A DNA stretch of 64,000 nt from an uncultured Acidobacteriota bacterium (GTDB lineage Bacteria; Acidobacteriota; Vicinamibacteria; Vicinamibacterales; 2-12-FULL-66-21). Positions 1,551-26,334 of this stretch are shown here, piece after piece; position 1 is the stretch's first letter; each line of letters opens with the position of its first letter. Under the pieces are notes generated by a model, which saw nothing but the letters and a program-made list of their open reading frames with translations, searched no databases and was not told the origin of the DNA. Made by a program: the position numbers and the translations under genes. Location of the stretch: assembly GCA_963774855.1 (NCBI GenBank), contig CAVZGT010000014.1, positions 508,892-572,891 of the forward strand, given 5' to 3'.

Positions 1551-2096
1551 ATGGCAGTGCCAGGAGGCCGATTCGTGCAAATGCCCGCAGCCTCGTCGGT
1601 TGCCACGATACATAAAGGTATGGCCGCGTTCGGTCGCATTCGTGAGTGTAAGAACTATACGATCCGGCACGGCCAAGGCCTGCTATCATCGGAGCTCCCC
1701 TTGGAAGACCAGATTTCCCGCGCGCGCGTGCTCGTGGTCGACGACAGTCCCACGGTGCTGAGCCTTTTGCGGGCCGCTCTCGAGGCGCAGCAGTACCACG
1801 TGGCCACGGCGGCCGATGGCGCCGAAGCCCTGAATACGATCAGGCAGTCCGCCCCCGACCTCATCGTGACCGACAGCATCATGCCGGGGCTGGGGGGATT
1901 CGCTCTGCTCGCACAGCTGAAGGAGAACGCAGCGACACGGGGTATTCCCGTGATCCTGCTGACGTCCGATCCAGACGATGCCCCACCCTCGGGGGACGCC
2001 CAGCCGGACGCGATCATCACCAAGTCGGCACAGATGGAACCGCTGCTCGCGCAGATCCGCGGGCTGCTTCAGCGGTCGAGCAATGTCTCGTTGTGA
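1551..2096 (+). CDS. single-domain response regulator (CheY-like receiver)
   Basis: RVLVVDDSPTVLSLLRAALE...DLIVTDSIMPGLGGFALLAQLK...PVILLTS receiver motifs. The longest ATG start is 1551. A TTG at 1701 with GGAG 6 nt upstream would give a typical 131-aa receiver. Confidence 0.85.
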   Translation: MAVPGGRFVQMPAASSVATIHKGMAAFGRIRECKNYTIRHGQGLLSSELPLEDQISRARVLVVDDSPTVLSLLRAALEAQQYHVATAADGAEALNTIRQSAPDLIVTDSIMPGLGGFALLAQLKENAATRGIPVILLTSDPDDAPPSGDAQPDAIITKSAQMEPLLAQIRGLLQRSSNVSL

Positions 2097-2431: not shown

Positions 2432-3959
2432 ATGATGAGGAAGCTGATTGCCCTCACTGCGCTGGTATGGATTGGGGCTCTCGGATGGGTCTGGCCCGCG
2501 GCTGGTCCGGCCGATCCGGTTGCGTCCGTTGCCGCTCATTCCGACGACGGGCTGAATGCCCAGCTCGCCGCGGTTCTCGCCGCCAATCGATTTACCGGGA
2601 AAGTCCAGTTCTCGCTCGAGGATCGCCTCGGACGCGACATCAACCCGAAGCTGGCGGATCTTGGCCGGCTGCTGTGGTTCGACAACGCGCACTCGCTCCA
2701 CCAGGACAACACGTGCGCGCGGCTGTCACTCGCCGACCAACGGCTTCGGCGACACGCAGAGCATCGCCATCGGCGTGGACAACAACGGCATCGTCGGTCC
2801 GCGCCGCTCCGGCGCGCGCAATCAGCGCCGATCGCCGCTCGTCGTCAACACGGCGTTTCTGCGCGCGCTCATGTGGAACGGGCGGTTCAGCGCGCCCTCG
2901 CGCGATCCGTTCGACAATTCGGCAGGCTTCCTGTTCCCGGCGCCCGAGGGGGCCACGACGTTCCCGCCAAACGATCCCGTCGTGAAGCACCTGCTGCAGG
3001 CGCAGGCGCACATTCCGCCGACCGAGCTCGTCGAAGTGGCGGGGTTCAAGGGCACGCGCGGGACCATCGGGCCGCGCTTCGATCAGTTCGACAACCATCA
3101 GGGTCTTCGGGTGCCGCTGCCCGACGAGTCCGGGTTCCGCAACGAGCCGATCCGGCAGAAGGTGCTGCGGATTCTCAATGGGGTCCCCGAATACCGCAAG
3201 CTCTTCGGACGGATTTTCCCGAGCGTGCGGCGCGGCGATCCGATCGACTTCACCATGTTCGGCCTGGCGATCGCCGAGTTCGAGTTCACGCTGACGTTTG
3301 CCGACGCCCCCATCGATCAGTTCGCCCGCGGTCATCGGAATGCGATGAGCACGTCCGAAAAACGCGGCGCGCTGCTGTTCTTCGGCAAGGCCGGCTGCGT
3401 CAAGTGCCACGCCGTTTCCGGCGACGCGAACGAGATGTTCTCCGACTTCCAGAATCGCGTGATCGGCGTGCCGCAGATCGCGCCGTTCTTCGGCGTGGAC
3501 GAGAGCAACATGATCTTCGACGGCCCGGGGGAGGACGAGGACTTCGGCCTCGAGCAGATTAGCGGCAACCCGGCCGATCGCTACAAGTTCCGCACCGCGC
3601 CGCTGCGGAACATCGCGCTGGCGCCCGCGTTCTTCCACAACGGCGCGTTCACGCAGCTGGACGATGCCATCAAGCATCATCTCGACGTGTACGATTCCGC
3701 GCGCGGCTACGATCCGAGGCGGGCCGGCGTGGATCGGGATCTGAGGATGCGGCTCGGACCGATCGAGCCGGTGCTGGCCAGGCTCGATCCGCTGGTTCGC
3801 ACGCCGAAGAACCTGTCGAGGCAGGAGCTCGCCGATCTGGTCGAGTTCGTCGGGGACGGGTTGCTGGACAAACGAGCGAAGAAAGAGAATCTGTGCAGGC
3901 TGGTGCCCGACTCGGTGCCGAGCGGCTTCCCTGTGCTGAAGTTCCAGGGCTGTCAATAG
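2432..3959 (+). CDS. di-haem cytochrome c peroxidase (CCP/MauG family), frameshifted as assembled
   Basis: Signal peptide MMRKLIALTALVWIGALG. Second haem site CVKCH, then FRTAPLRNIALAPAFFHNGAF. The first haem site reads TCAR[+1 nt]CHSPTNGFGD, with the frame change at 2716-2723. AAGGAG lies upstream of ATG 2432. Confidence 0.85.
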
Positions 3960-4146: not shown

Positions 4147-5404
4147 ATGAAGCGCAGTTTCTGGCTGGCCCTGGTGGCGTTGGTGGCCTTCAGCCAGCCG
4201 GCATGGGCCCAGCAGGACGACGTCACCCGGCTGAGGGCCGAGCTGCAGCGGCAGCAGGAGATCATCGGCCAGCTGCTCAAGCGGCTCGACGATCTCGAGA
4301 AGAAGCAGGCGCTGACGGCCACGAACGAAGAGCTCAAGCAGGAAGCGCAGACGCAGCAGGAAGCCGTCGAATCCGTGCGCGAGTCGCTGCTCAGCCGCGT
4401 GAACCTGAACGGCTATTACAACTTCCGCCTTGCCGCCGACGAGTCGCCGGAGCCGTTCGCCTTCCAGCAGCACCATCTCGGCCTGCTCCTCAGCAAGCAG
4501 CACAGGAAATTCAACTTCCACATGGAGCTCGAGCTCCAGAACGTGCCCCATCACCCCGAGATCCACGGCGAGGAAGAAGAGGGTGAGGGGGAAGAAGGCG
4601 AGCACGTCGAAGGCACCGACGTCAGCGGCGAAGGGACAGGTCGCGGTCGAGAACGCGTGGATGGAGTACGCCCACAACCGGTTCGTGAACGTCCGGGTCG
4701 GCAAGCAGCTCTCCCCGCAGTACTGGTGGCAGAATCACTATCCGAACCTGACGCTCTCGACCGATCAGCCGATCTACCTGCGCGAGCTGTTTCCACCGGA
4801 GCTCGTCGGCGTCACGGTGCACGGCGGCGCCGCGAGGCCGTCGGGGCAGTCGGAGCTGGCCCTCAACTACCGGGTCTACCTCTCGAACAACCAGTTCGAA
4901 GGCAACAGCCAGACGGACCTGCGCGATGCGAAGTCGTGGGGCGGACGCGTGCAGGTGCGGCTGCCGACCGGCGGCCGGCTGAAGCGGTTCGACGTGGCCG
5001 GGCGACCTCTACCGCGGCCGGATCGCGCTCGTGACCCAGGAGCTCGTCGACGATCACGTGTACGGCCTCGAGAGCCAGATCGAAGTCGACCGCTTCCTGC
5101 TCCAGGCGGAATACGCGCGCGGGCGGACGCTTGGCGAGACGCGCTCCGGCTACTACGTGCAGCCCGCCGTGCGCCTGCGCGAGAACTGGACGACGTTCTA
5201 CCGGATCGAGCAGCTCGACAGCCCGCGGATCCAGCGCGCCGAGCGCCGGCACCTGGCGGGGTTGAATTTCCGGCCGTACCGCGCAGATCGCGGTCAAGGC
5301 GGAGTACTACCGCGGGGTGCCGCTGGAGCGGTCGTTCATCTCATCGGAAGAGGACGCGCACGCCCTTCAATGGCTTCGCGGCGGCGGCCGTCTTCTTTTT
5401 CTAA
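4147..5404 (+). pseudogene. outer-membrane porin (OprO/P-like, N-terminal coiled coil), four frame breaks
   Basis: AGGAG then ATG 4147. Signal peptide MKRSFWLALVALVAFSQPAWAQQ, coiled coil, beta-barrel-like repeats, and terminal ...FNGFAAAAVFFF followed by a stop. Frame changes at about 4636, 5000, 5288 and 5362. Confidence 0.55.
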
Positions 5405-5414
5405 GAGGCTCTGG

Positions 5415-5875
5415 GTGTTCACTCGGGGGTCCGCGGCTTTTTGGTTCGTGGCGGCACTGGTGGTGCTGCCGCTCGGGCTCGATCGCTCCGCCGCCTGCGC
5501 CGCCGCCTGATTTCGTGGTCGTCGTGCACAAGGAGAACCCGGTCGCGTCGCTGCCGATCACGGAGCTGCAGCGCGTCTTCCGGAAGCAGACGCGGATGTG
5601 GCCGCACGGCGAGGCGGTCGTGCCGGTTGACTGGGACGCGACGAGCGTGATGCGCGCAGGAGTTCTCGCGGCGCGTGATGGGGCGCTCGGTGCGCGAGAT
5701 GGCGGAGTTCTGGGTGCAGCAGAACATCACCCAGGGGCTGACGCCGCCCTCGACGCTGAAATCGACGCGCGCGATTCTTCGCTTCGTGGTGAGCGTGCCG
5801 GGGGCGATCGCCTACGTGCCGGCCGGCGAGGAGGACGACACGGTGAAAGCGATCGGCATCAAAGGGCTTCGCTGA
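5415..5875 (+). pseudogene. small periplasmic substrate-binding (PBP-like, PstS-related) protein, two frame breaks
   Basis: AAGAGG then GTG 5415. Signal-like FWFVAALVVLPLGL, then DFVVVVHKENPVASLPITELQRVFRKQTRMWPHGEAVVPVDW... and ...MGRSVREMAEFWVQQNITQGLTPPSTLKSTRAILRFVVSVPGAIAYVPAG. Frame changes at about 5500 and 5655. Confidence 0.5.
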
Positions 5876-5930: not shown

Positions 5931-7877
5931 ATGCGGTTGAGCATCAGGTGGCAGTTGGCGCTCGTCTCGGTGGCGTTGTCGCTGCTGCCGATCGCGCTCG
6001 CCGGCGTCCTCGCGTACCGGAGCGCGCGCGGGGCCCTCGAGGAGCGGATTCAGTTCAACCTCGAAACGCTCGCGTCGCTCAGCGCGGAGAAGCTCCAGCG
6101 TCTGCTGCTCGATCGCCACCAGGCCCTTCGCGGGTGGTCGCAGCTCGGCTTCCTGCAGGACGACACGGTCACCGGAGACACCGACGGCCGCATCCAGCAG
6201 TTCCTCGGCGAGGCCAAGCGCAATTTCGATCTCTATCAGGAAATCTGGGTGGCGAACGCGGCCGGGACGGTCATCGCCTCGACGCGTCCGGAGCTTCGCG
6301 GCCGCGAAATCGGCGATCGCGAGTGGCAGCAGGCGGCGCGGCGCGGCGACCCGTGGGCCGGCCTCCCCGGGCCGCAGGAGCTGACCGGACGCGTGGGCAT
6401 GCCGCTCGCGTTTCCCATTCGCGCGAGCTTCGATCGCGGCCGGACCGTCGGCGTCATCGTCGCCGTACTCGACTGGCCTTCCGTCGTCGAGATTCTCAAC
6501 GGCGTGAAGGTCGTGCCCGAAGGACAGAGCGAGCGCGGCTATCTGGTGCTGGCCGACTCGAGCGGCGTGCTGCTCAGCGCCCCCCCGTTCTTCACCGGCT
6601 GGCAGCCCGGGAAGACGGGCCTCAACTCGGTCGGGCTCGAGGCGATCCAGCAGCTGCCGGCCAGCGCGGCGGCGGGCAGCGCGACGTTCGACGTGCGCGC
6701 CGCCCCGTTTCTGGCGGGCTACGCCACGACGGAGCGCCAGCCGTACGTGCCGGGCACGTGGCGCACGGTGCTGCTGATGCGCGCCGACGTCGCCTTCGCG
6801 CCGCTGCGGCGGTTGATGTGGACGATCATCGCCCTGTCGATCGTGCTCGCGACCGCGGCGGCCGCCGGCTCGGTGTACTGGGCGAACCAGTTCTCGCGCC
6901 CGATCGAATCGCTCGTGCCGTTTCTGCGCGGCGTCGCCGCCGGCGATCTCTCGCAGAGCTTCCAGGTGGCGCGCCACGACGAGCTCGGCATGCTCGCCCA
7001 GGCCGCCAACGACATGTCCGGGAAACTCCGCGGGCTCATCCAGGAGCTGCAGAAAGCCGGGCTCCAGATCACGTCGGCGTCCACGCAGATGCTGTCGGCC
7101 GCCGAAGATCACGCATCGGGCTCGGTCCAGCAGGCCGCCTCGATCGCCCAGGTCACCGCGACGATGGAGGAGCTGACCGACACGGCGAAGCAGATCGCGC
7201 AGAGCGCGACATCGGTCGAGAAGATCGCCGACGACAGCGCGAACGCGGCGCACGCCGGGTACGACTCGGTCAACGAAGCCCTCGGCGCGATGGAGAAGAT
7301 CCGCCGGCGCGTGGCGGACATCTCCGGCAAGACGCTGCTGCTCGGCGAGCGCTCGCAGCGCATCTCGGAAGTGCTCAACCTGATCAAGGAAATAGCCGGC
7401 GAGATTCACCTGCTCGCGGTCAACGCCGCGATCGAGTCTGCCGCCGCGGGCGAGCACGGCAAGCGCTTCGCCGTCGTCGCCGGCGAAGTCCGCCGGCTGG
7501 CCGAGCGGACCCGTGAATCCGCGGAAGAGATCAAGGGGATTGTCGGCGAGATCCAGTCGGCGACGAACACGTCGGTGCTGGCGACGGAGCAGGGCGTCAA
7601 GGAAGTGGAGAACGGCGTGTCGCTGGCGACGCGCGCGCGCGGCAGCCTCGAGGAGATCCTGCAGATGGTCGATCGGACGACGCAGGCGATCCGCCAGATC
7701 ACCTTCGCCACGCAGCAGCAGCGCAGCGCCAGCGAGCAGATCGTCCAGACCATGCGGGAGGTGGCCGAGGTCACCAAGCAGACCGCCGCCGGGATGAAGC
7801 AGTCGGCGAGCTCCGTCGCCGATCTGAACGGGCTGGCGGACCAGTTCAAGATGCGGATCCGGGAATTCAGACTGTAG
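5931..7877 (+). CDS. methyl-accepting chemotaxis protein with periplasmic Cache-like sensor and HAMP
   Basis: TM1 ([21 protein letters not shown]), a ~270-aa periplasmic domain, TM2, HAMP ([21 protein letters not shown]), and a signalling domain with [35 protein letters not shown]. Intact. Confidence 0.9.
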
Positions 7878-7887
7878 GCGTCAGGAC

Positions 7888-8448
7888 ATGGCCAGCGAGG
7901 AAACGGCGGCAGAATCCCCGGCGATCGGGCCGGAGGCGATTCTGGAGGCAATCGAGCGCCAGCGTGCAGACGACGGGGAGCCGGGCGTCCAGGCGGAGCG
8001 CGTCCCGTACCTCGGGTTCTTTCTCGGCGACGACGTGTACGGCCTGCCACTGCAGCAGTTGCGGGAGGTCGCGCGGCTCACGCGCCTGCGCCGCATCCCC
8101 GGCGCGCCGTCGCGCGTCGCGGGCCTGGTCAACCTGCGCGGCGAGATCATCTGCGCGCTGAGCGCCCACGCCATCCTCGGGCTGACCGCGTCCACGCCCG
8201 CCGCCGCCGCGTTCTTCGTCGCGTTGCGCGGCTTCACCGACCCGATCGGGCTGGTCGTCGACAACATCGCCGATATCTATTCGATCGATCCGGGCCAGAT
8301 CGAGCCGCCGCCGCCGACGTGGTCTGCCGAGCGCGCCGCCTTTTTCGTCGGGACGGCCCATGTGCCCGAGGGGCTGATGGGCCTGCTCGATCTCCAGCGG
8401 CTGGTGGCCGACGATGGCCAACGAACGTCGGGAGACGGGACACTCTAG
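7888..8448 (+). CDS. cheW: chemotaxis coupling protein CheW
   Basis: YLGFFLGDDVYGLPLQQLREVARLTRLRRIPGAPSRVAGLVNLRGEII CheW fold signature. Starts 10 nt after the MCP stop. Confidence 0.9.
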   Translation: MASEETAAESPAIGPEAILEAIERQRADDGEPGVQAERVPYLGFFLGDDVYGLPLQQLREVARLTRLRRIPGAPSRVAGLVNLRGEIICALSAHAILGLTASTPAAAAFFVALRGFTDPIGLVVDNIADIYSIDPGQIEPPPPTWSAERAAFFVGTAHVPEGLMGLLDLQRLVADDGQRTSGDGTL

Positions 8449-8467
8449 TGATCAGCGGAAGCGATGT

Positions 8468-8538
8468 AACAGGAGTTCAGGAGGTCAGGAGATTCATTCT
8501 TGAAAACAGGAAAACTCCTGATCTCCTGATCTCCTGTT
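8468..8538. repeat. word-repeat hairpin (ATCAGGAG / CTCCTGAT family)
   Basis: Left arm is AACAGGAGTTCAGGAGGTCAGGAGAT and right arm is AACTCCTGATCTCCTGATCTCCTGTT. Arms are 26 nt with 3 mismatches and a 19-nt loop. Period 8 nt. Confidence 0.8.
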
Positions 8539-8563
8539 TAAAGACAAGCGCTGGGTTGACGCC

Positions 8564-10796
8564 ATGAACACACTCGACACGACCGCATTCATCGGCAAGT
8601 TCGTCGAGGAGGCCCGGGATCGCCTGAAGGGGCTGACGGCCGCCGTGCTGCGCCTCGAGGAAGTGCCGGGCGCGCAGGATGCGATGGCCGAGGTGCTGAG
8701 GCAGGGACACAACCTGAAGGGCTCGGCGCGCATGCTCGGGCTCCTCGACATCGCGCAGGTCGTGCACCACCTCGAGGAAGTGTTCGTGGCCGCGCAGCAG
8801 GACGCGCGGCGGCTCGACGCCGTCGCCTTCGACGTCGTCCTCAGTACCGATTGACGCGCTGTCGATCCGCGTGGAGCAACTCGCGAGCGGGATCGGCACG
8901 CCCCCGGACGTCTCCGCGCTGTGCCGGACGCTCAGCGGCCTGGCGGCGGGCCCGGTGCGTGCCGCGCAGGACGGCGCAGCCCCTGCCACGCCGGCGGATG
9001 CGGCATCCGGGCCGGCGCCGCAGGCGCCCGGGTCCGTGCGGCAGTCGCTCCGCGTCCCGGTGGAAAAACTGGACGGCCTGACGCATCTCGCGGCGGAGCT
9101 GGTCATCCAGAGCCTCAAGGCCTCGCAGCGGCACGTCGAGCTGCGCCGTCTGGATACCGCGCTCGGCCGGCTGCGCGATCGCGCGCGTGAAGCGCGCCTC
9201 GCGCCCGCCGCCGCAGCCGGCGCCGGCCCCGCCTTCGGCGAGTACGCCGAAGCGCTGGAGCAACTCAGCCGGCGCCTCCGGCAGTTCTGCGGCGAGTTCA
9301 GCGACGATCGGGTGCGCCTCAACCTCATCACCGAGGAGTTCCGGCAGAACGTGATCAGCCTCACGATGCTGCCGCTGCACACGGTGTTCGACGCCTTCCC
9401 GCGCGCCGCGCGCGATCTCGCGCGGCAGTTCGACAAGGAAGTGGAGGTCACGATCAGCGGCCGTGAGACGGAGCTCGACAAGAAGATCATCGAGCAGATC
9501 TCGGATCCGCTGATTCACCTGGTGCGGAACGCGATCGATCACGGCATCGAGCGCCCGGCCGAGCGGCTTCGCAAGGTCAAGCCGGCCGCGGGCCAGCTCC
9601 TGATCTCGGCGGAGCAACAGGGAAACCGCATCCTCATTTCCGTCCGCGACGACGGCCGGGGCATCGATCCCGAGGAGCTGCGCGCCGCGGCGATCCGCCG
9701 CGCGCTCGCGCCCACCGCGGATCTGGAGCGCTGGAGCACGGCGGAGCTGCTCGAACTCGTCTTCCAGCCCGGCTTCAGCACGCGCGCGTCCACCACCGAC
9801 GTCTCGGGGCGCGGCGTCGGGATGGACGTCGTGAAAAACGTCGTCGTCCGGCTGGGCGGATCGGTGCGCATCCATTCCGAGCCGGAGCACGGGACCACGG
9901 TCGTCCTCGATCTGCCGTTGTCGCTGGCGCTCCTGCGAGTCGTGCTGGTCGAAACCGGTGACGAGCTGTTCGCGCTGCCGACGGCGTCGGTGCGCCGGCT
10001 GCTGCACGTCAAGCCCGAGGACATCCTCGCGGTGCCGGGCGGACACGCGATCGATCTGGCCGGCGAGACGATTCCGCTGACGTCCCTGAGCGTGCTGCTC
10101 AACGGATCGGCAGGGCCGGTCGCGGCGCGTCAGCCGGTGCTCGTCGCGCGTGCCGGCGAGGCGTCCTTCGGTCTGCTCGTCGAGGCGGTGCACGAGGAGC
10201 AGGAGCTCGTCTTCGAGGAGCTGCGCCACCCGCTGCGCGAGCACCGCACGTTTGCCGGCGCCGCCATCCTGGGCAACGGCGACATCGTGCCCATCCTCGA
10301 CGTCCACGCGCTCTTCGAGCTGGCCTCGCGGAAGCCGTCGATCCAGCCCGGTCCTCCGCCGGAGCGTCCCGCCGCCCCGCGCGTCGGACGCGTGCTCGTG
10401 GTCGAGGACTCGCTCGTGGCGGGCGAGCTCGAGAAGAGCATCCTGATCGCGGCGGGATACGAGGCCGAGATCGCGCACGACGGCGTGGAGGCGTTCGAGA
10501 TGCTCCTGCAGAAGCCGTGGGACCTGGTGGTCGCCGACGTGGACATGCCGCGGATGGACGGGCTGCAGCTCACGGCGCGGCTCCGGGCGGATGAGCGCTT
10601 CCGCAATCTGCCGGTCGTCATCGTCACCACGCGTGACTCGATCGAGGACCGCCGCCGCGGCTTCGACGTCGGGGCCGACGCCTACGTGCTCAAGCGCGAG
10701 TTCGATCAGAGCCACCTCCTCGACACGGTCAAGCGCCTCATCGGCCGCGCGCTGCCGGACGTCCCGGCCCCATTTCCCGGGCCGCCCGATGCTTGA
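8564..10796 (+). CDS. cheA: chemotaxis histidine kinase CheA with C-terminal receiver (CheA-REC), one frame break
   Basis: Hpt (HNLKGSARMLG), HATPase (HLVRNAIDHGIE...DDGRGID...SGRGVGMDVV), CheW-like domain, and REC (VLVVEDSLVAGE...VVADVDMPRMDG...AYVLK). One extra nt at about 8849: VVLST|IDALSIRVEQL. Confidence 0.9.
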
Positions 10797-11880
10797 GGCC
10801 GTTTCCGCCGCCCGCACGGAAGTTCGCGTCCTGATAGTGGACGACTCGGAAGTCGTGCGCCGGGTCCTCAAGACCCTGCTGGAGCTGGACCCCGAGATTC
10901 GCGTGATCGGGACGGCGGCCGACGGCGGGGAAGCCGTCGAGATGACGGCGCAGCTGCGGCCCGACGTCGTGACCATGGACCTCGTCATGCCGGGCATGGA
11001 CGGACTCGAGGCGACCTCGCGGATCATGGCGCACTACCCGACGCCCGTGCTGTTCTTCAGCTCGTACTTCGATCGCGAAGGCATGCACTCGCGGTTCGAT
11101 GCGCTCGCCGCCGGAGCGCTCGACGTCGTGGAAAAGCCCACGCTCACGCCCGACGATCAGTGGACGGCGCAGGCCGGCGCGCTCGCCCAGAAGGTGAAGG
11201 CGCTGGCGCGAGTGCCGGTCGTCGCCCACATCCGTGGCACGCACGTGCAGCCGCGGCAGCCCAATCAGGCTCGCCCGGGCCGCATGACCGGGACGCCGGT
11301 GGACGTCGTCGGGATCGGTGTCTCGTCGGGGGGGCCGCGCGTCCTCGAAGAGCTGCTGTCCGCGCTGCCGCCGGCGCTGACGTTGTCGGTTGTCGTCGTC
11401 CAGCACATGGCGGAGGGGTTCCTCGTCGGGCTGATCGAATGGCTGCAACAGCGGTGTCCCGTACCCGTGAAGATCGCTGAAGAGGGAGACCTCATCCTGC
11501 CGCGGCGGGTGCTCTTCGCGCCCGACGGCGCGCACCTGGTGGTGCGGTCCGGCGGACGCGTGCACCTCTCGGATGCGGCTCCCGTGATGGGCCATCGGCC
11601 GTCGGTGGACGTGACGCTGACGTCGCTGGCGAAGGTGTACGGCGCGCGGGCCGCCGGCATGCTGCTGACCGGCATGGGATCCGACGGCGCGCACGGGCTG
11701 CTGGCCATCCGGCAGGCCGGCGGCGTCACGATGGTGCAGAATGAAGAAACCTGCGTCGTCTTCGGCATGCCGCGCGCGGCGATCGAGATCGGGGCGGCGC
11801 AGCGCGTGCTGCCGACGACGGGCCTCATCGACAGCCTGAAGAGACTGCACACCGATCGTGTCCGGTCCATGGCGCCATGA
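10789..11880 (+). CDS. cheB: chemotaxis methylesterase CheB (REC + CheB_methylest)
   Basis: VRVLIVDDSEVVRRVLKTLLE receiver and the methylesterase core GIGVSSGGPRVLEELL...VVVQHM...GMGSDG. Its ATG overlaps the cheA stop (ATGCTTGA). Confidence 0.9.
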   Translation: MLEAVSAARTEVRVLIVDDSEVVRRVLKTLLELDPEIRVIGTAADGGEAVEMTAQLRPDVVTMDLVMPGMDGLEATSRIMAHYPTPVLFFSSYFDREGMHSRFDALAAGALDVVEKPTLTPDDQWTAQAGALAQKVKALARVPVVAHIRGTHVQPRQPNQARPGRMTGTPVDVVGIGVSSGGPRVLEELLSALPPALTLSVVVVQHMAEGFLVGLIEWLQQRCPVPVKIAEEGDLILPRRVLFAPDGAHLVVRSGGRVHLSDAAPVMGHRPSVDVTLTSLAKVYGARAAGMLLTGMGSDGAHGLLAIRQAGGVTMVQNEETCVVFGMPRAAIEIGAAQRVLPTTGLIDSLKRLHTDRVRSMAP

Positions 11881-13337
11881 TGAATCGAGCCCTCGCCTCG
11901 AGCGTCGCGCGTCCGGCACCTCTGGCCGTCGCGGACTTTGCACGCCTCCGCGACCTCATCGAGGACCGGTGCGGCTTGTTCTTCGGAGAGAGCCGGCAGA
12001 CCTCGCTGCAGGCGTCGGTCGGCGTCCGCATGCAGCAACTCGGACTCGACGACGCCGGCGCCTACTACGAGCGCCTGCGCGGCGAGGCGGCAGACGACGA
12101 ATTCCGGAAGCTGATCCACCTCGTCACCATTACCGAGACCTGCTTCCTCCGCGATCCGGCGCAGTTCCGGCTGCTGCGCCATCACGTGATCCCGGCCGTG
12201 CTGGCCGATCGCGAGCGCGACGGCACACGCGCGATTCGCGTCTGGAGCGCCGGCTGTTCGAGCGGCGAGGAGCCGTACTCGGTCGCGCTGACGTTGCACG
12301 ACATGGGCGTGCACCTCACGCGTCCGGACTGGACCTTCGACATCCTCGGCACCGACCTGAACACGGAACGTCTCGACGTGGCGCGGCGCGGCGAGTACGG
12401 CGCCCGCGCGGTCCGCAACGTCGAAGGGGCCTGGCTGCGGCGGTTCTTCGAGCCGTCGGGCGATCAGTTCCGCCTGAAAGACGAGATCAGGCGGTCCGTG
12501 CGATTCCGGGAGGGCAACCTCACGAGCGATCGCTCGACGGGCGCGCCGCCGGGCCGTGCCGACGTCATCCTGTGCAAGAACGTCGCAATCTACTTCCGTC
12601 CGGAGGTCACGCGGCGGCTCGTCGAGCGGCTGTACGACGCGCTCAACGACGGCGGCTATCTGCTGCTCGGACACTCGGAGTCGTTGTGGCAGATGGAGTC
12701 CGGGTTCACGCTCGTCGAGCACGACGGCGTCTTTTGCTATCGCAAGGACGCGCGACCCCACGCCGGCTTCTGCGGCGCCAGTCACGCGAAGACGTCCGCG
12801 CGCGTTCCCGCGGCGACGACAGGCGAGCCGGCGACCGGCCAGTACGAACGCTGTCTCGAGGCGTTTCGCAATGGTGAGTGGGACCAGGCGGAAAGAGATC
12901 TGCTCGAGCTGATTCGAGCGAGCTGGACGTTCGTGCCCGCGCACCTGCTGCTCGGGGGCCTCTTCGCCCAGCGGGGCCGCTACGCCGAGGCGCGCGCGCA
13001 GGCCGAGCAGGTCCTCGGCCTGGACGACATGGACGCCCGCGCCTATCTGCTGCTCGGCATGATCGACGCGCGCGCCGGCCGATCCGCCGAAGCGATCGTC
13101 TCGCTGCGCCGGGCGCTCTATCTCGACGACGCGCTGGCGCTGGCGTACTTCTGGCTCGGCCTCCTCTATCGCGATCGCGGAGACGTCGACCGGGCCTGCG
13201 GCGAGCACCTGGAGCTCGTCCGCCGGGACCGTCAGCACACGCTCGACTTCACCGAAGAGTTCGCGCCCGATCTGACGCCCGCGCAGATCGTGCACGCCTG
13301 CCTCCAGACGGTGCGCCGGTTGAGGGAGGGCGCATGA
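11877..13337 (+). CDS. cheR: chemotaxis methyltransferase CheR with C-terminal TPR repeats
   Basis: FFGESRQTSLQ...TITETCFLRDPAQF...IRVWSAGCSSGEEPYS...DVILCKNVAIYF, followed by TPR-like helices. ATGA overlap with cheB. Confidence 0.9.
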   Translation: MMNRALASSVARPAPLAVADFARLRDLIEDRCGLFFGESRQTSLQASVGVRMQQLGLDDAGAYYERLRGEAADDEFRKLIHLVTITETCFLRDPAQFRLLRHHVIPAVLADRERDGTRAIRVWSAGCSSGEEPYSVALTLHDMGVHLTRPDWTFDILGTDLNTERLDVARRGEYGARAVRNVEGAWLRRFFEPSGDQFRLKDEIRRSVRFREGNLTSDRSTGAPPGRADVILCKNVAIYFRPEVTRRLVERLYDALNDGGYLLLGHSESLWQMESGFTLVEHDGVFCYRKDARPHAGFCGASHAKTSARVPAATTGEPATGQYERCLEAFRNGEWDQAERDLLELIRASWTFVPAHLLLGGLFAQRGRYAEARAQAEQVLGLDDMDARAYLLLGMIDARAGRSAEAIVSLRRALYLDDALALAYFWLGLLYRDRGDVDRACGEHLELVRRDRQHTLDFTEEFAPDLTPAQIVHACLQTVRRLREGA

Positions 13338-15013
13338 TCTGGCTGACTGTGTCGCTGGCGGTTTTGACCGGAGCCGCCGCGGTTCTCGCGGTCGCCGTGT
13401 TCCGGCTCCGCCGGACGGTCGCCGCGCTCGAGACCCGCGCGGCGGAGGAGACGGCGAGACGCGCGGAGGCGGATGCGCAAGCCGCCGCGCGCACCACCCT
13501 CGAAGGCAGCCTGCTCCTCTGGATGCGCCACGAAATCCGGACGCCGATCAACGCCGTCGTCGGCATGGCGGATCTGCTGCTCGACCTCGAGCTCACGTCC
13601 AAGCAGCGCGAGTACCTCGGCATGCTCCGGGCGAGCGCCGAGGGGCTGTCGCGGACGGTCAACGAGGTCCTGGATCTCTGCCGGCTGGAGACCGGGCGGC
13701 TGGTGCTCGACCGTCAGCCCTTCGATCTGCGGAGCGAGGTCGACGTGTCGCTCGATCGCGTGGCCTCGATGGCAGCCGAGCGCGGGATCGATCTCTCGTA
13801 CCGCATCGACGGGCCCGCGCCGTCCACGCTGCTCGGCGACGCCGCCCGGCTCCGGCACGTGCTGGCGACGCTGCTGACCTACGCCGTGCGGCGGACGCAC
13901 GAAGGCGGAGTGACGCTGTCGGTGACGACCCGCGCGGTGCCGCCGGATCTGCACGAGGTGACCTTCGTCGTGCGCGATACCGGCATGGTCATCGCGCCGG
14001 AGCGCGCGGCGCGGCTGTTCCAGCCGCTCAGCCGCATCATCTCGTCGGATCGCGTGGCCGATGCGCAGGATCTCGGCCTCACGCTGTGCCACGGCATCGC
14101 CCGCCTGATGAGCGGCCACATCGCGCTCCGGTCCGAAGCGCGCGGCGGCTCGACGTTCGAGTTCATCATGCTGGCGGAGAACCCCGCGCGCGTCCTTCAG
14201 ACGCGGTTGCCCGTGGCGCCGCTCGAATCGGCCGCGCCGGAGTGGTCCGAGCCGCTACGGATCCTGCTGGCGGAAGACAGCATGGTCGCGCAGAAGGTGG
14301 CGATCGAGGTGCTCGAGCGGCTCGGACACACGGTCCACGTGGTCGGCGATGGACAGGACGCGCTGCACGCGCTCGAGGCCGAGCGCTACGATGTGATCCT
14401 GATGGACATGCACATGCCGGAGATGGACGGCCTGACGGCCACCCGTCGCATCTGCGAGCGCTGGCCGCGCGACCGCCGGCCGCGGATCGTCGCGCTGAGC
14501 GCGAGCGATCTGCCCGAAGACCGCGCCCGCTGGCTGGGTGCCGGCGCGGACGGCTGGGTCAGCAAGAGCCTCCCGATCGAGGAAGTGCGCCGCGTGTTGG
14601 CCGGCCTGGTTCCGGCCGGCATGGCGCTGTCGCAGGCGGCGCCCACGGGGCCCGGCGACGGCCGGCGGCCGCCGCAGCAGGGCGGCGCTCCGGGCGCGGC
14701 CGTCCACATCATCGAGATCTTCCTCCAGGACGCCGCCGCACAATTGTCGGCGCTCCGGGAGGCCGTCGACCGCCACGACGCCGCCACCGTCGAGCGCGTG
14801 GCCCATACGATGAAGGGAAGCGCCGCCATGCTCGGCGCCTCATCGGTCGCGCGCAGCTGCGCCGAACTGATCCACAATGCCCGGCATCGATCGTTTGACG
14901 GGGGCGCCGCGATCGTGTCGCAGCTCGAGGACGAGGTCGCCGCGATTCAGCGCAGCATCTCGCCGCGCCCCGCGCACTTGACCCAGACATCGGCGTCCGG
15001 ACCGCGCGAATGA
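13334..15013 (+). CDS. hybrid sensor histidine kinase (TM-HisKA-HATPase-REC-Hpt)
   Basis: H-box WMRHEIRTPINAVVGMADLL, ATPase G-boxes, receiver ILLAEDSMVAQK...VILMDMHMPEMDG, and Hpt HTMKGSAAMLGA. ATGA overlap with cheR. Confidence 0.9.
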   Translation: MIWLTVSLAVLTGAAAVLAVAVFRLRRTVAALETRAAEETARRAEADAQAAARTTLEGSLLLWMRHEIRTPINAVVGMADLLLDLELTSKQREYLGMLRASAEGLSRTVNEVLDLCRLETGRLVLDRQPFDLRSEVDVSLDRVASMAAERGIDLSYRIDGPAPSTLLGDAARLRHVLATLLTYAVRRTHEGGVTLSVTTRAVPPDLHEVTFVVRDTGMVIAPERAARLFQPLSRIISSDRVADAQDLGLTLCHGIARLMSGHIALRSEARGGSTFEFIMLAENPARVLQTRLPVAPLESAAPEWSEPLRILLAEDSMVAQKVAIEVLERLGHTVHVVGDGQDALHALEAERYDVILMDMHMPEMDGLTATRRICERWPRDRRPRIVALSASDLPEDRARWLGAGADGWVSKSLPIEEVRRVLAGLVPAGMALSQAAPTGPGDGRRPPQQGGAPGAAVHIIEIFLQDAAAQLSALREAVDRHDAATVERVAHTMKGSAAMLGASSVARSCAELIHNARHRSFDGGAAIVSQLEDEVAAIQRSISPRPAHLTQTSASGPRE

Positions 15014-16123
15014 CTGAGCCTGTCGCGAAATTCCCCAAACGGATTCTCGTCGTCGACGACGACGACGCGACCCGGTGCATCACGGAGGCGCTGGTCGAGG
15101 CTCTCGGGCACGAGGCGGAAGCGGCGCGCGACGGCATCGAAGCACTCGCGAAGCTGCGGCTCGGCCCCGACCTCGTGCTGCTCGACGTCGTCATGCCGGG
15201 CATGGACGGCTACGAGGTCTGCCGCCGCATCCGGCAGGATCCCCAGGCCGCCGGCGTGCCGGTGATCATGGTGACCTCGATGACGGGCCGCGAAGATCGG
15301 CTGCGCGCGGTCGAGGCGGGCGCCAACGACTTCATCGCCAAGCCGGTGGACAAGACGGAGCTTCGCGTCCGGTCCTTCTCGCTGCTGAAGATGAAAGAGG
15401 CGCAGGACGCGCTGAAGCGCCATCAGGCCCATCTCGAGGAGACGATCGAGCAGCGCACCGCCAGCCTGCGCGCCGCGCTCGAACAGATGGCCGAGGCGCA
15501 ACGGCTCGCGTATCGCGCCCAGCTCGACACGGTGGAGCGGCTCGCGATCGTCGCCGAGTACAAGGATCACGTCACCGCCAGCCATATCAGGCGGATGAGC
15601 GAGGTACTGCGCGGTGATCGCGCGCGGGCTGAACCTGCCGCCCGGCGAGGTCGAGCTGATCCTGCACGCCAGCCGGATGCACGACGTCGGCAAGATCGCG
15701 GTGCCCGACTCGATCCTGCGCAAGCCGTCCAGCCTGGACGGCGCCGAGTGGGTCGTGATGCGCCGGCACCCGATGATTGGCAGCCGCATCCTGGACAACT
15801 CCTCGTCGGAGCTCCTTCAGGCGGGACGCGTCATCGCGCTCTGCCACCACGAGCGCTGGGACGGATCGGGCTACCCCAACGGGATCGTCGGCACGAGCAT
15901 CCCGTTGTGGGGGCGTATCTGCGCCGTCGCCGACGTCTTCGACGCGGTGACGAGCGAACGTCCCTACAAGCCGGCGTACTCGATCGAAGAAGCGCTCCGG
16001 ATCCTGCGCGAAGGGCGCGGGACCCAGTTCGATCCTCAGGTGGTGGACGTGTTCTTCGATCAGCTCGACGAGATCCTGGCCGTGGTGGCCGAGTATCAGG
16101 ACAAGAACAACGCGCTCGACTGA
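15010..16123 (+). CDS. response regulator with HD-GYP domain (putative c-di-GMP phosphodiesterase), one frame break
   Basis: REC (ILVVDDDDATRC...LLDVVMPGMDG) then HD-GYP (HIRRMSE|YCAVIARGLNL, HDVGKIAVPD, HHERWDGSGYP). Extra G at 15604. ATGA overlap with the hybrid HK. Confidence 0.85.
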
Positions 16124-16126
16124 TCG

Positions 16127-16960
16127 CTACTTCCGCGTAATCTTCACCCCGCCGTTCGACGTGTTCACGCGCAGCGTCGGCCCGCCGCTCCCGAGGTCGG
16201 TCGAGAACGAGCGGCCGATTTTTCCCTGGACCATCACCGGGAAATCGATCTTGACCGATCCGTTCACGGTGCCGGTTTCGAGGTGCGCGGAGTAGTGGGC
16301 CGGAATGGACAGATGCACGCCGCCGTTCGACGTCTGCACGTCGAGTCCGGCTCCCTGCCAGGTGGCGCCGTCGAGGTCCACGTTGACGCCGCCGTTGGTC
16401 GTGCGCCCTTCGACGTCCCCGCCCATGCGCGACAGCTTGACCCCTCCGTTGACGGTCCGGAACTCGACGCGGCTGTTCACGTTGTCGATGGCAATGCCGC
16501 CGTTCGTGGTCCGCAGCGACAGCGGCGTCTGGGTCGGCACGTCGAGGCGGTAGCTGACGTGCCAGCCGTCGCGGCGTCCGAGGTTGCGAGGTCCGTCGGC
16601 CGTGACGCGGTCGGCCGTGGCGATGATCTGGACGCGCGAGGCGATTGCCCGGGCTTCCTCTTCGGTCGAGGCGGTGCCGACGACCCGGGCGCGGACGAGA
16701 ATGTCGCCGCGCGACTGGCCGTCGACGCTGATGCCGCCGTTCGGCGAGGCGTCCACCGTCATGGTGGCGCCGGCCGCGGGCACGGTGTATTCGCGGACTT
16801 CGCAGAAGCCCCGCCGGTCATCTCCCCAGCTCTCGTCGCCGCACCAGTCGTCCCCGCTCGAGTTCCGCTGCGCGGCAGCCCCGCCGCTGAGCGTCAGGGT
16901 CAGGCCGGCCAGGATCGCCACAGCCCAGACCGATCGCATTCTCATTGAAATTGCAGTCAT
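16127..16960 (-). CDS. DUF4097 family beta-strand repeat protein (putative adhesin), secreted
   Basis: Signal peptide MRSVWAVAILAGLTLTLSGGAAAQ. Repeated TNGG(I/V)x(I/V/L) strands (TTNGGIAIDN, TVNGGVKLSR, TTNGGVNVDL, TSNGGVHLSI, TSNGGVKITR). GGGAG lies upstream of ATG 16960. Confidence 0.75.
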   Translation of the reverse strand: MTAISMRMRSVWAVAILAGLTLTLSGGAAAQRNSSGDDWCGDESWGDDRRGFCEVREYTVPAAGATMTVDASPNGGISVDGQSRGDILVRARVVGTASTEEEARAIASRVQIIATADRVTADGPRNLGRRDGWHVSYRLDVPTQTPLSLRTTNGGIAIDNVNSRVEFRTVNGGVKLSRMGGDVEGRTTNGGVNVDLDGATWQGAGLDVQTSNGGVHLSIPAHYSAHLETGTVNGSVKIDFPVMVQGKIGRSFSTDLGSGGPTLRVNTSNGGVKITRK

Positions 16961-26228: not shown

Positions 26229-26334
26229 AACAGGAGGTCAGAAGGTCAGGAGGACATCCTTAACCCAAAGATCAAAACCTCCTGATCTCCTGATCTCCTG
26301 ATCTCCTGTTTAGGTTTTAGTCTCCTGATCTCTC
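26229..26334. repeat. word-repeat hairpin (ATCAGGAG / CTCCTGAT family)
   Basis: AACAGGAGGTCAGAAGGTCAGGAGGA faces CCTCCTGA TCTCCTGA TCTCCTGA TCTCCTGT (26276-26310). An extra TCTCCTGATCTCTC unit runs into the tldD stop. Confidence 0.8.

Follow-up and report, generated by a model that had tools for sequence, protein, structure and literature searches.

Can a chemosensory array govern an enzyme that destroys a cyclic-dinucleotide messenger, and by which phosphotransfer route would it do so? This question is raised by a seven-gene operon at positions 5931-16123 of a 64,000-nucleotide stretch of contig CAVZGT010000014.1 (assembly GCA_963774855.1), here called the window, from an uncultured bacterium of the Acidobacteriota, a phylum dominant in soil and poorly studied. 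The operon encodes the proteins of a Che-like pathway, followed by a hybrid protein with kinase, receiver (REC) and histidine phosphotransfer (Hpt) domains and by a REC-HD-GYP protein. To our knowledge, Wsp is the only Che pathway known to set the amount of cyclic di-GMP (c-di-GMP) directly, and Wsp makes the messenger. An initial annotation of the window had described a Che-like operon without motor-type output, signalling through an additional kinase/Hpt relay to c-di-GMP hydrolysis.

We favour, with moderate confidence, a pathway of the ACF (alternative cellular functions) type in which CheA would be the sole ATP-driven kinase and phosphate would pass via a receiver aspartate and an Hpt histidine to a REC-HD-GYP phosphodiesterase. 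The class of pathway is known; this variant of it is uncharacterised. Its hybrid protein is a candidate pseudokinase inside a chemosensory pathway.

The operon and its proposed Hpt step

Pfam assigns to the seven genes, all on the plus strand, the domains which had been described for them:

5931..7877, plus strand: transmembrane chemoreceptor (methyl-accepting chemotaxis protein, MCP) with dCache_1 periplasmic domain (44.5 bits, cut-off 45), HAMP domain and MCP signalling domain (MCPsignal E 2e-38)
7888..8448, plus strand: CheW coupling protein (CheW E 5e-25)
8564..10796, plus strand: CheA with C-terminal receiver, consisting of Hpt, linker, dimerisation, HATPase_c, CheW-like and REC parts, no P2
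10789..11880, plus strand: CheB methylesterase with receiver
11877..13337, plus strand: CheR methyltransferase fused to TPR repeats (CheR E 1e-51, CheR_N, several TPR families)
13334..15013, plus strand: hybrid protein with one transmembrane helix, HisKA, non-canonical HATPase_c, REC and Hpt
15010..16123, plus strand: REC-HD-GYP response regulator, predicted cyclic-dinucleotide phosphodiesterase (REC E 9e-28, HD_5 E 4e-30)

The MCP, CheW and CheA core is co-clustered with CheB and CheR in one operon. In CheA, the Hpt part occupies positions 8564-8854 and is followed by H-kinase_dim, HATPase_c, CheW and REC up to 10796; once a frame break discussed below is repaired, the 743-residue protein shows canonical N, G1, F and G2 boxes and the acceptor His49. 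The other phospho-acceptors are equally present, namely the receiver aspartates of CheA and of the hybrid protein (Asp358), the Hpt histidine of the latter (His491) and Asp59 of the REC-HD-GYP protein. CheB scores above the cut-off of an NCBIfam CheB subfamily (350 bits vs 342). NCBIfam returned no equivalog for any operon protein, and its matches to CheA, CheB and CheR were generic.

Four junctions are start/stop overlaps at the positions reported initially (ATGCTTGA at 10789; ATGA at 11877, 13334 and 15010), in a window with a G+C content of about 69%. They had been taken to imply translational coupling and fixed stoichiometry; coupling is possible, but an overlap is no proof of fixed stoichiometry. 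No flagellar or pilus gene was found among the Pfam-assigned called genes of the related loci L001-L017 or among the ten largest remaining open reading frames (ORFs) of the window. Scanning the 64 kb with receiver queries (tblastn) revealed five REC domains, four of them within the operon and one at 1725-2024, which bears out the earlier statement that the sole single-domain receiver lies upstream, at 1551-2096, and none inside the operon. Rfam detected no riboswitch or other RNA family within the window, and promoter and terminator scans gave chance-level results only.

The hybrid protein belongs to a family of homologs spanning 98% to about 50% identity to it. At 98, 84, 60 and about 50% identity of this protein the same seven-gene order is found, the overlapping junctions are kept in nearly all loci across this range, and the genes 3' of the HD-GYP gene differ. 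Altogether the arrangement occurs in more than ten independent contigs, with the order kept in every related contig examined. In a scan of one genome per species, the block was present in four species representatives, all of them metagenome-assembled genomes (MAGs) labelled Acidobacteriota. Synteny in so many independent contigs goes far beyond chance, and the gene cluster is real and conserved in uncultured soil Acidobacteriota. Across the family, the input (MCP, 78-85% identity) and the output (HD-GYP protein, 75-82%) lie far above the intermediate transmission proteins (50-68%). Compared with L004, for instance, the MCP is 85% and the HD-GYP protein 82% identical, whereas CheW, CheR and the hybrid protein reach 50-58%. 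The MCP, still 78% identical in L013, is the most conserved protein of the block.

Natural variation is found between CheR-TPR and the output enzyme. Among the best 120 homologs of the HD-GYP protein (71-94% identical), 63 are at least 470 residues long, and all except two of these carry an Hpt signature at the N-terminus (61/63). L013 and L014 encode a cytochrome c peroxidase (CCP)/MauG-like protein, a porin-like protein, a PstS-like protein, MCP, CheW, a 127-residue protein, CheA-REC, CheB and CheR-TPR, followed by an Hpt-REC-HD-GYP fusion and no kinase gene. L015 has the same block with Hpt and REC-HD-GYP called as two genes, a split that is probably a frameshift. Homology links the fused Hpt with the Hpt at the C-terminus of the window's hybrid protein (36% identity, E 9e-17). 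In L016, cheR and the HD-GYP gene are separated by a 522-nucleotide slot that encodes a 169-residue protein. This protein has an N-terminal membrane helix of the type found in the hybrid protein, and its Hpt is 45% identical to residues 419-542 of the window's protein; it looks like the hybrid protein without the dimerisation and histidine phosphotransfer (DHp), ATP-binding and REC domains. Nothing between CheR-TPR and REC-HD-GYP except the Hpt is invariant across all variants. Since sister lineages devoid of the kinase core keep the Hpt alone, the conserved feature is, judged by gene content, a predicted Hpt relay step and not a nested kinase. The series of full hybrid, hybrid with extra pseudo-receiver, membrane-anchored Hpt alone and Hpt fused to the output offers a natural experiment on the building and simplification of phosphorelays.

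From gene content, motifs, synteny and natural variants we infer the phosphotransfer steps, the direction of regulation and the substrate as follows. The dCache chemoreceptor would sense a periplasmic cue, possibly helped by the porin-like and PstS-like proteins encoded upstream. Through CheW the receptor would control CheA, and CheB and CheR-TPR would give methylation-based adaptation. CheA, which lacks the P2 docking domain and has its own receiver, would be the only ATP-driven kinase. The phosphoryl group would move from CheA His49 to a receiver aspartate, from there to Hpt His491 and finally to Asp59 of the REC-HD-GYP protein; candidates for the intermediate aspartate are the REC of CheA, that of the hybrid protein and the conserved stand-alone REC. 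By analogy with RpfG, phosphorylation of Asp59 would relieve the inhibition of the phosphodiesterase and lower the messenger. In the window's lineage, the Hpt sits at the C-terminus of a hybrid protein anchored in the membrane, and the HisKA-HATPase core of this protein may serve as relay, phosphatase or modulator/second input.

A bolder version is put forward only tentatively: the array would drive a four-step relay switching on the HD-GYP phosphodiesterase, as a mirror of Wsp, and a conserved but catalytically dead kinase core would have taken on a new role, that of a phosphatase or of a second-input sensor, possibly of the dinucleotide itself, giving feedback. If this is true, the lineages without kinase core are natural controls. 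A widespread pathway that destroys the messenger and is subject to methylation-based adaptation would mean that chemosensory arrays can control second-messenger levels both ways.

The hybrid protein and known signalling pathways

CheR-TPR proteins and multidomain regulators mark ACF clusters, and a 2012 census of CheR-TPR clusters includes kinase and Hpt outputs and one REC-HD output, from Desulfatibacillum alkenivorans (PMC3447774). As Che systems modulating c-di-GMP, a 2022 review of c-di-GMP sensing gives the ACF class, with Wsp characterised, and the type IV pili (TFP) class only. Among characterised Che pathways, our literature searches found none that ends in an HD-GYP protein, and a Geobacter review offered nothing relevant. 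The initial annotation had not recognised the wiring as a characterised system, and indeed no characterised equivalent was found in these searches; kinase, Hpt and HD outputs as such, however, had already been censused.

The Wsp system of Pseudomonas (WspA-F, WspR) shares with the window an ACF-type cluster of membrane MCP, CheW, CheA-REC, CheB and CheR-TPR as well as a receiver-fused enzyme as output that changes c-di-GMP. The Wsp output is the REC-GGDEF cyclase WspR, whereas that of the window is a REC-HD_5 protein, with no GGDEF in the block. Wsp has two CheW proteins (WspB, WspD) and the window one, the cheW-cheA gap holding only a hairpin repeat. Further differences of the window are the Hpt step between CheA and output, the dCache sensor and the gene order. 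Che3 of Myxococcus xanthus is reported to be a CheY-less Che system which cooperates with a separate kinase-regulator pair, CrdS/CrdA (PMC3147164), and its CheA acts as a phosphatase on CrdA (PMC3868531). Unlike the window, that system has an NtrC-type transcription factor as output and neither an Hpt nor a cyclic-dinucleotide enzyme.

Is the hybrid protein of the window a kinase at all? On balance, we lean slightly towards its HisKA-HATPase core not being an autokinase. The protein starts with a single hydrophobic helix and about 35 linker residues before HisKA, and has no sensor domain. No variation is seen in the H box HEIRTP (His66), in the receiver Asp358 or in Hpt His491, and His66 is found in every full-length member of the family. 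The ATP-binding boxes depart from the canonical pattern: in the N box, the key Asn is Tyr in the window (Y183) and N, Y, D, S or G across the family; G1 has Val, Pro or Ala for its second Gly (window DTGMV); the F box has Leu for its second Phe (window FQPL); and the G-T-G of G2 is replaced by A-Q-D (window A-Q-D-L-G-L). Among 84 further hybrid kinases retrieved by the same search, 81-83 have the canonical residues at these N, G1, F and G2 positions, and alignments to ShkA and to 7z8n agree that the boxes of the hybrid protein are non-canonical.

Among solved structures, RetS (6dk7, 6dk8) and ShkA (6qrj) are closest to the kinase core. RetS acts without autophosphorylation, and ShkA is under c-di-GMP control. 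Neither is encoded in a che operon, and ADAQDLGL in place of G2 is specific to the family of the window's protein. One variant of the hybrid protein, P0028 (719 residues), has an extra receiver-like domain without acceptor Asp, located after the ATP-binding domain and ahead of the true receiver, recalling the pseudo-receiver of ShkA. The contig listed for it measures 7412 nucleotides, the same figure as for the HD-GYP homolog P0139.

Several observations weigh against the pathway as we propose it, in addition to those on substrate and frameshifts given in the next section. The kinase core is not decaying: in comparison with members of about 50% and about 60% identity, DHp is 70-76%, REC 68-78% and the ATP-binding domain 55-63% identical. 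ADAQDLGL, in place of G2, is almost invariant in the family, and the N-box Asn is retained in about half of it. Because of this conservation of the three domains and of ADAQDLGL, the core appears to have a selected function, which could be an unusual ATP-dependent autophosphorylation. The phosphotransfer route itself is read from sequence and leaves more than one receiver as the donor to the Hpt. Membership in the ACF class is suggested by architecture (CheR-TPR, multidomain regulator output), not by MiST class models. Finally, loss of the kinase core seems favoured over its gain only by the N-terminal helix and Hpt retained in L016.

The conservation of the core lends some weight to a two-kinase circuit, which we regard as unlikely, though it is the main alternative. 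Here the hybrid protein would be an active autokinase with its own His-Asp-His-Asp relay to the HD-GYP protein, and the Che array would only modulate it, for example by CheA phosphorylating the hybrid REC. Besides the invariant H box, purifying selection on DHp, ATP-binding domain and REC and the N-box Asn in roughly half of the family, such a circuit has a biochemically tested precedent: in the Che3 system of Rhodospirillum centenum (CheA3, CheS3, CheY3), a Che-like cluster encodes a second hybrid kinase, and CheA-REC signals to it by phosphorylating its receiver (PMC3868531). A kinase module is, moreover, present in about 40% of the regulators of CheR-TPR clusters (PMC3447774). CheS3, however, has N-terminal receivers and PAS and is an active kinase that phosphorylates the single-domain CheY3 (PMC3868531), whereas in the window's protein the receiver lies between a non-canonical ATP-binding domain and a C-terminal Hpt, and an enzyme serves as output. 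In every member, G1, F and G2 deviate from the canonical form, the window's subclade has another residue in place of the N-box Asn, and the hybrid protein has no sensor domain of its own. Three natural variant types have Hpt only and no kinase core; the core is therefore dispensable for signalling to the HD-GYP protein. Of the additional kinase/Hpt relay proposed initially, the Hpt step is conserved; an independent kinase is doubtful in view of the non-canonical boxes, the missing sensor and the absence of the core in sister lineages.

The output enzyme and the integrity of the operon

Returning to the pathway driven by CheA, its output would be cyclic-dinucleotide hydrolysis, most probably of c-di-GMP. 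The best solved relative of the repaired REC-HD-GYP protein (370 residues) is the c-di-GMP phosphodiesterase PmGH of Persephonella marina (PDB 4mcw, E 1e-51). All catalytic motifs are kept: H, HD, H, HHExxDGxGYP and D are aligned and conserved, with HD, HHERWDGxGYP and DVFDA common to both proteins. The N-terminal region of PmGH (before about residue 160) is unmatched, and the window's protein has a phospho-receiver. The description of a Che-like operon that lacks a motor-type output and ends in a REC-HD-GYP protein is thereby upheld.

It is rather improbable that the output is something else, either hydrolysis of 3'3'-cGAMP or another dinucleotide or, in the main, protein-protein contacts. 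The second-best structural relative, V-cGAP3 (5z7c, E 7e-40), is specific for 3'3'-cGAMP, some effects of RpfG depend on its contacts with GGDEF proteins (PMC3749722), and the window ORFs sampled showed no GGDEF, PilZ or PAS-GGDEF-EAL gene. Against this stand PmGH as best relative, the PA4781-type structure 4r8z that is also found behind PmGH, and the top NCBIfam match, a c-di-GMP phosphodiesterase regulator family (NosR family), although far below cut-off. L016 (1-857) and L017 (1-840) do carry a PAS-GGDEF-EAL gene, on the strand opposite to the stand-alone receiver and about 5 kb upstream of it.

As the sequence stands, two of the seven operon genes are interrupted. The cheA gene is not a single ORF: its Hpt part stops at 8852-8854 and the remainder lies in another frame. 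Comparison with L001 and L011 places the break at one extra C at 8847, between the Hpt and dimerisation domains. The HD-GYP gene is broken by one extra G at 15603, as comparison with close relatives indicates. Removal of the extra bases restores both proteins to full length. The initial annotation implied the second break by speaking of a repaired HD-GYP protein; the frame change in cheA at about 8847 went unmentioned.

These frameshifts could be genuine in this strain, which weighs against a working pathway, yet that the operon is decaying and the pathway non-functional seems quite improbable. Three upstream genes are interrupted as well, and L012 has its own +1 insertion in the HD-GYP gene, 4 nucleotides from that of the window. 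The lesions, however, fit assembly error and not selective decay. Relative to close relatives there are seven +1 insertions within about 4.6-15.6 kb (at 4631, 4998, 5279, 5352, 5655, 8847 and 15603), six of them disrupting frames, and 41 one-base indels in both directions separate the window from the 97%-identical MAG contig L011 over 17.9 kb. Each long-read relative breaks a different set of genes: CheA, kinase and CCP in L011, MCP and HD-GYP in L012, nearly all in L017. The HD-GYP gene is whole in L001, L002, L004, L005, L007 and L011, and several relatives have both cheA and the HD-GYP gene unbroken. Given indels throughout the window and its 97% relatives, and given relatives with both genes intact, the two frameshifts are most likely long-read assembly errors in an operon that is probably intact. 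The window has the look of long-read sequence assembled without polishing, and readings based on its ORFs need care.

The insertion in L012 (19478-19480) and that at 15603, marked together in GAG[G]TAC[C]TG, are independent in MAGs only about 80% identical, and the pair may mark an error hot-spot around an AGTACT/GTAC site. A general clustering of insertions at GTAC, as expected of methylation-linked basecalling error, was considered and dropped, since 3 of 25 near GTAC against a background of about 4% is too weak.

A last alternative takes the two final genes for an independent pair of the RpfC/RpfG type merely beside a che operon. In Xanthomonas campestris, phosphotransfer from the HK-REC-Hpt sensor RpfC activates the REC-HD-GYP phosphodiesterase RpfG (PMC3749722), and the domain layout of the window's pair (HisKA-HATPase-REC-Hpt with REC-HD-GYP) is exactly the same. 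RpfC, however, is an autokinase with a multi-helix input sensing diffusible signal factor (DSF), whereas the window's hybrid protein lacks a sensor, has non-canonical ATP-binding motifs and is encoded in a che operon; no rpfF-like gene (DSF synthase) was found in the block. An independent pair is hardly credible, as adjacency and 4-nucleotide overlaps with cheR are kept down to about 50% kinase identity with changing downstream genes, as sister lineages have an Hpt or Hpt-REC-HD-GYP gene directly after cheR-TPR, and as the hybrid kinase has no input domain of its own; the assignment of the last two genes to the operon is supported by this synteny.

The upstream genes of the conserved block and neighbouring elements

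The operon is the downstream part of a larger conserved block. Its order is stand-alone REC, CCP/MauG-like gene, porin-like gene (about 416 residues) and PstS-like gene (about 141 residues), then the seven genes. The stand-alone receiver, 4 kb upstream, is no unrelated neighbour; it is a conserved member of the block together with three periplasmic or outer-membrane genes. The upstream members and one repeat element in the window are:

1551..2096, plus strand: stand-alone CheY-like receiver, REC at about residues 60-169 (Pfam Response_reg E 9e-22)
2556..3959, plus strand: di-haem cytochrome c peroxidase/MauG-like gene (Pfam CCP_MauG E 6e-20)
4147..5400, plus strand: porin-like outer-membrane protein with signal peptide, N-terminal coiled coil and barrel-like C-terminal part
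5476..5875, plus strand: small secreted PstS-like (PBP_like_2) protein of about 141 residues (Pfam PBP_like_2, weak)
8470..8536, no strand: REP-like palindrome between cheW and cheA (hairpin -58.7 kcal/mol, z = -8.1)

In the stand-alone receiver the signature residues DD, Asp, Thr and Lys are present, and its true start probably lies downstream of 1551. It is kept just upstream of the CCP gene in L009, L010, L011, L012, L016 and L017. The CCP/MauG-like gene lies upstream of the che genes in all loci compared. Its ORF in the window has only one CxxCH and homologs align from residue 56 on; the N-terminus is probably frameshifted in this assembly. In the porin-like gene, comparison with an intact 416-residue homolog (tblastn) reveals three +1 insertions (about 4631, 4998 and 5279), so that the reading passes through frames 1, 2, 3 and 1. 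After repair the protein reads through and is 76% identical to that of L004; neither Pfam nor NCBIfam gave a match for it.

The PstS-like gene switches frame at a +1 insertion at about 5655. Its assignment is weak, with PBP_like_2 at E 0.002 in one Pfam scan and 5e-6 in another, an AlphaFold2 model of moderate confidence (pLDDT 70) and PstS proteins as best Foldseek matches (E 0.02, TM-score 0.44, again weak). It has 405 homologs, those among the 120 listed measuring 117-157 residues. As a marker specific to the family, with about 400 clusters at 90% identity, it indicates that the family is abundant in soil metagenomes. The CCP, porin-like and PstS-like proteins, whose genes are kept ahead of the chemoreceptor gene in all loci, may deliver or generate the signal.

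Beyond the block the neighbourhood varies. On the window side, an S9 peptidase gene (66-1226) lies upstream of the stand-alone receiver; in the distant relatives L012 (2274-5994) and L009 (15-2846), two PQQ-type (pyrroloquinoline quinone) beta-propeller dehydrogenase-like genes precede it. At the 3' end the operon adjoins a convergent DUF4097 ('toastrack') gene on the minus strand (16127-16960). This gene is kept only in L001 and L002 and, being conserved in the closest relatives only, lies outside the block.

The extra protein of about 127 residues encoded between cheW and cheA in the sister clade (L013 4746-5126, L014 4771-5154, L015 4336-4728) had no Pfam match and resembles a divergent CheW by eye only. 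In the window, the same gap holds the REP-like palindrome, which is built of CAGGAGNT repeats and has a second, intergenic copy at 26231-26308. Since the gap is unalignable with that of the 97% relative L001, the palindrome looks like a mobile REP-like repeat; it does not belong to the signalling system.

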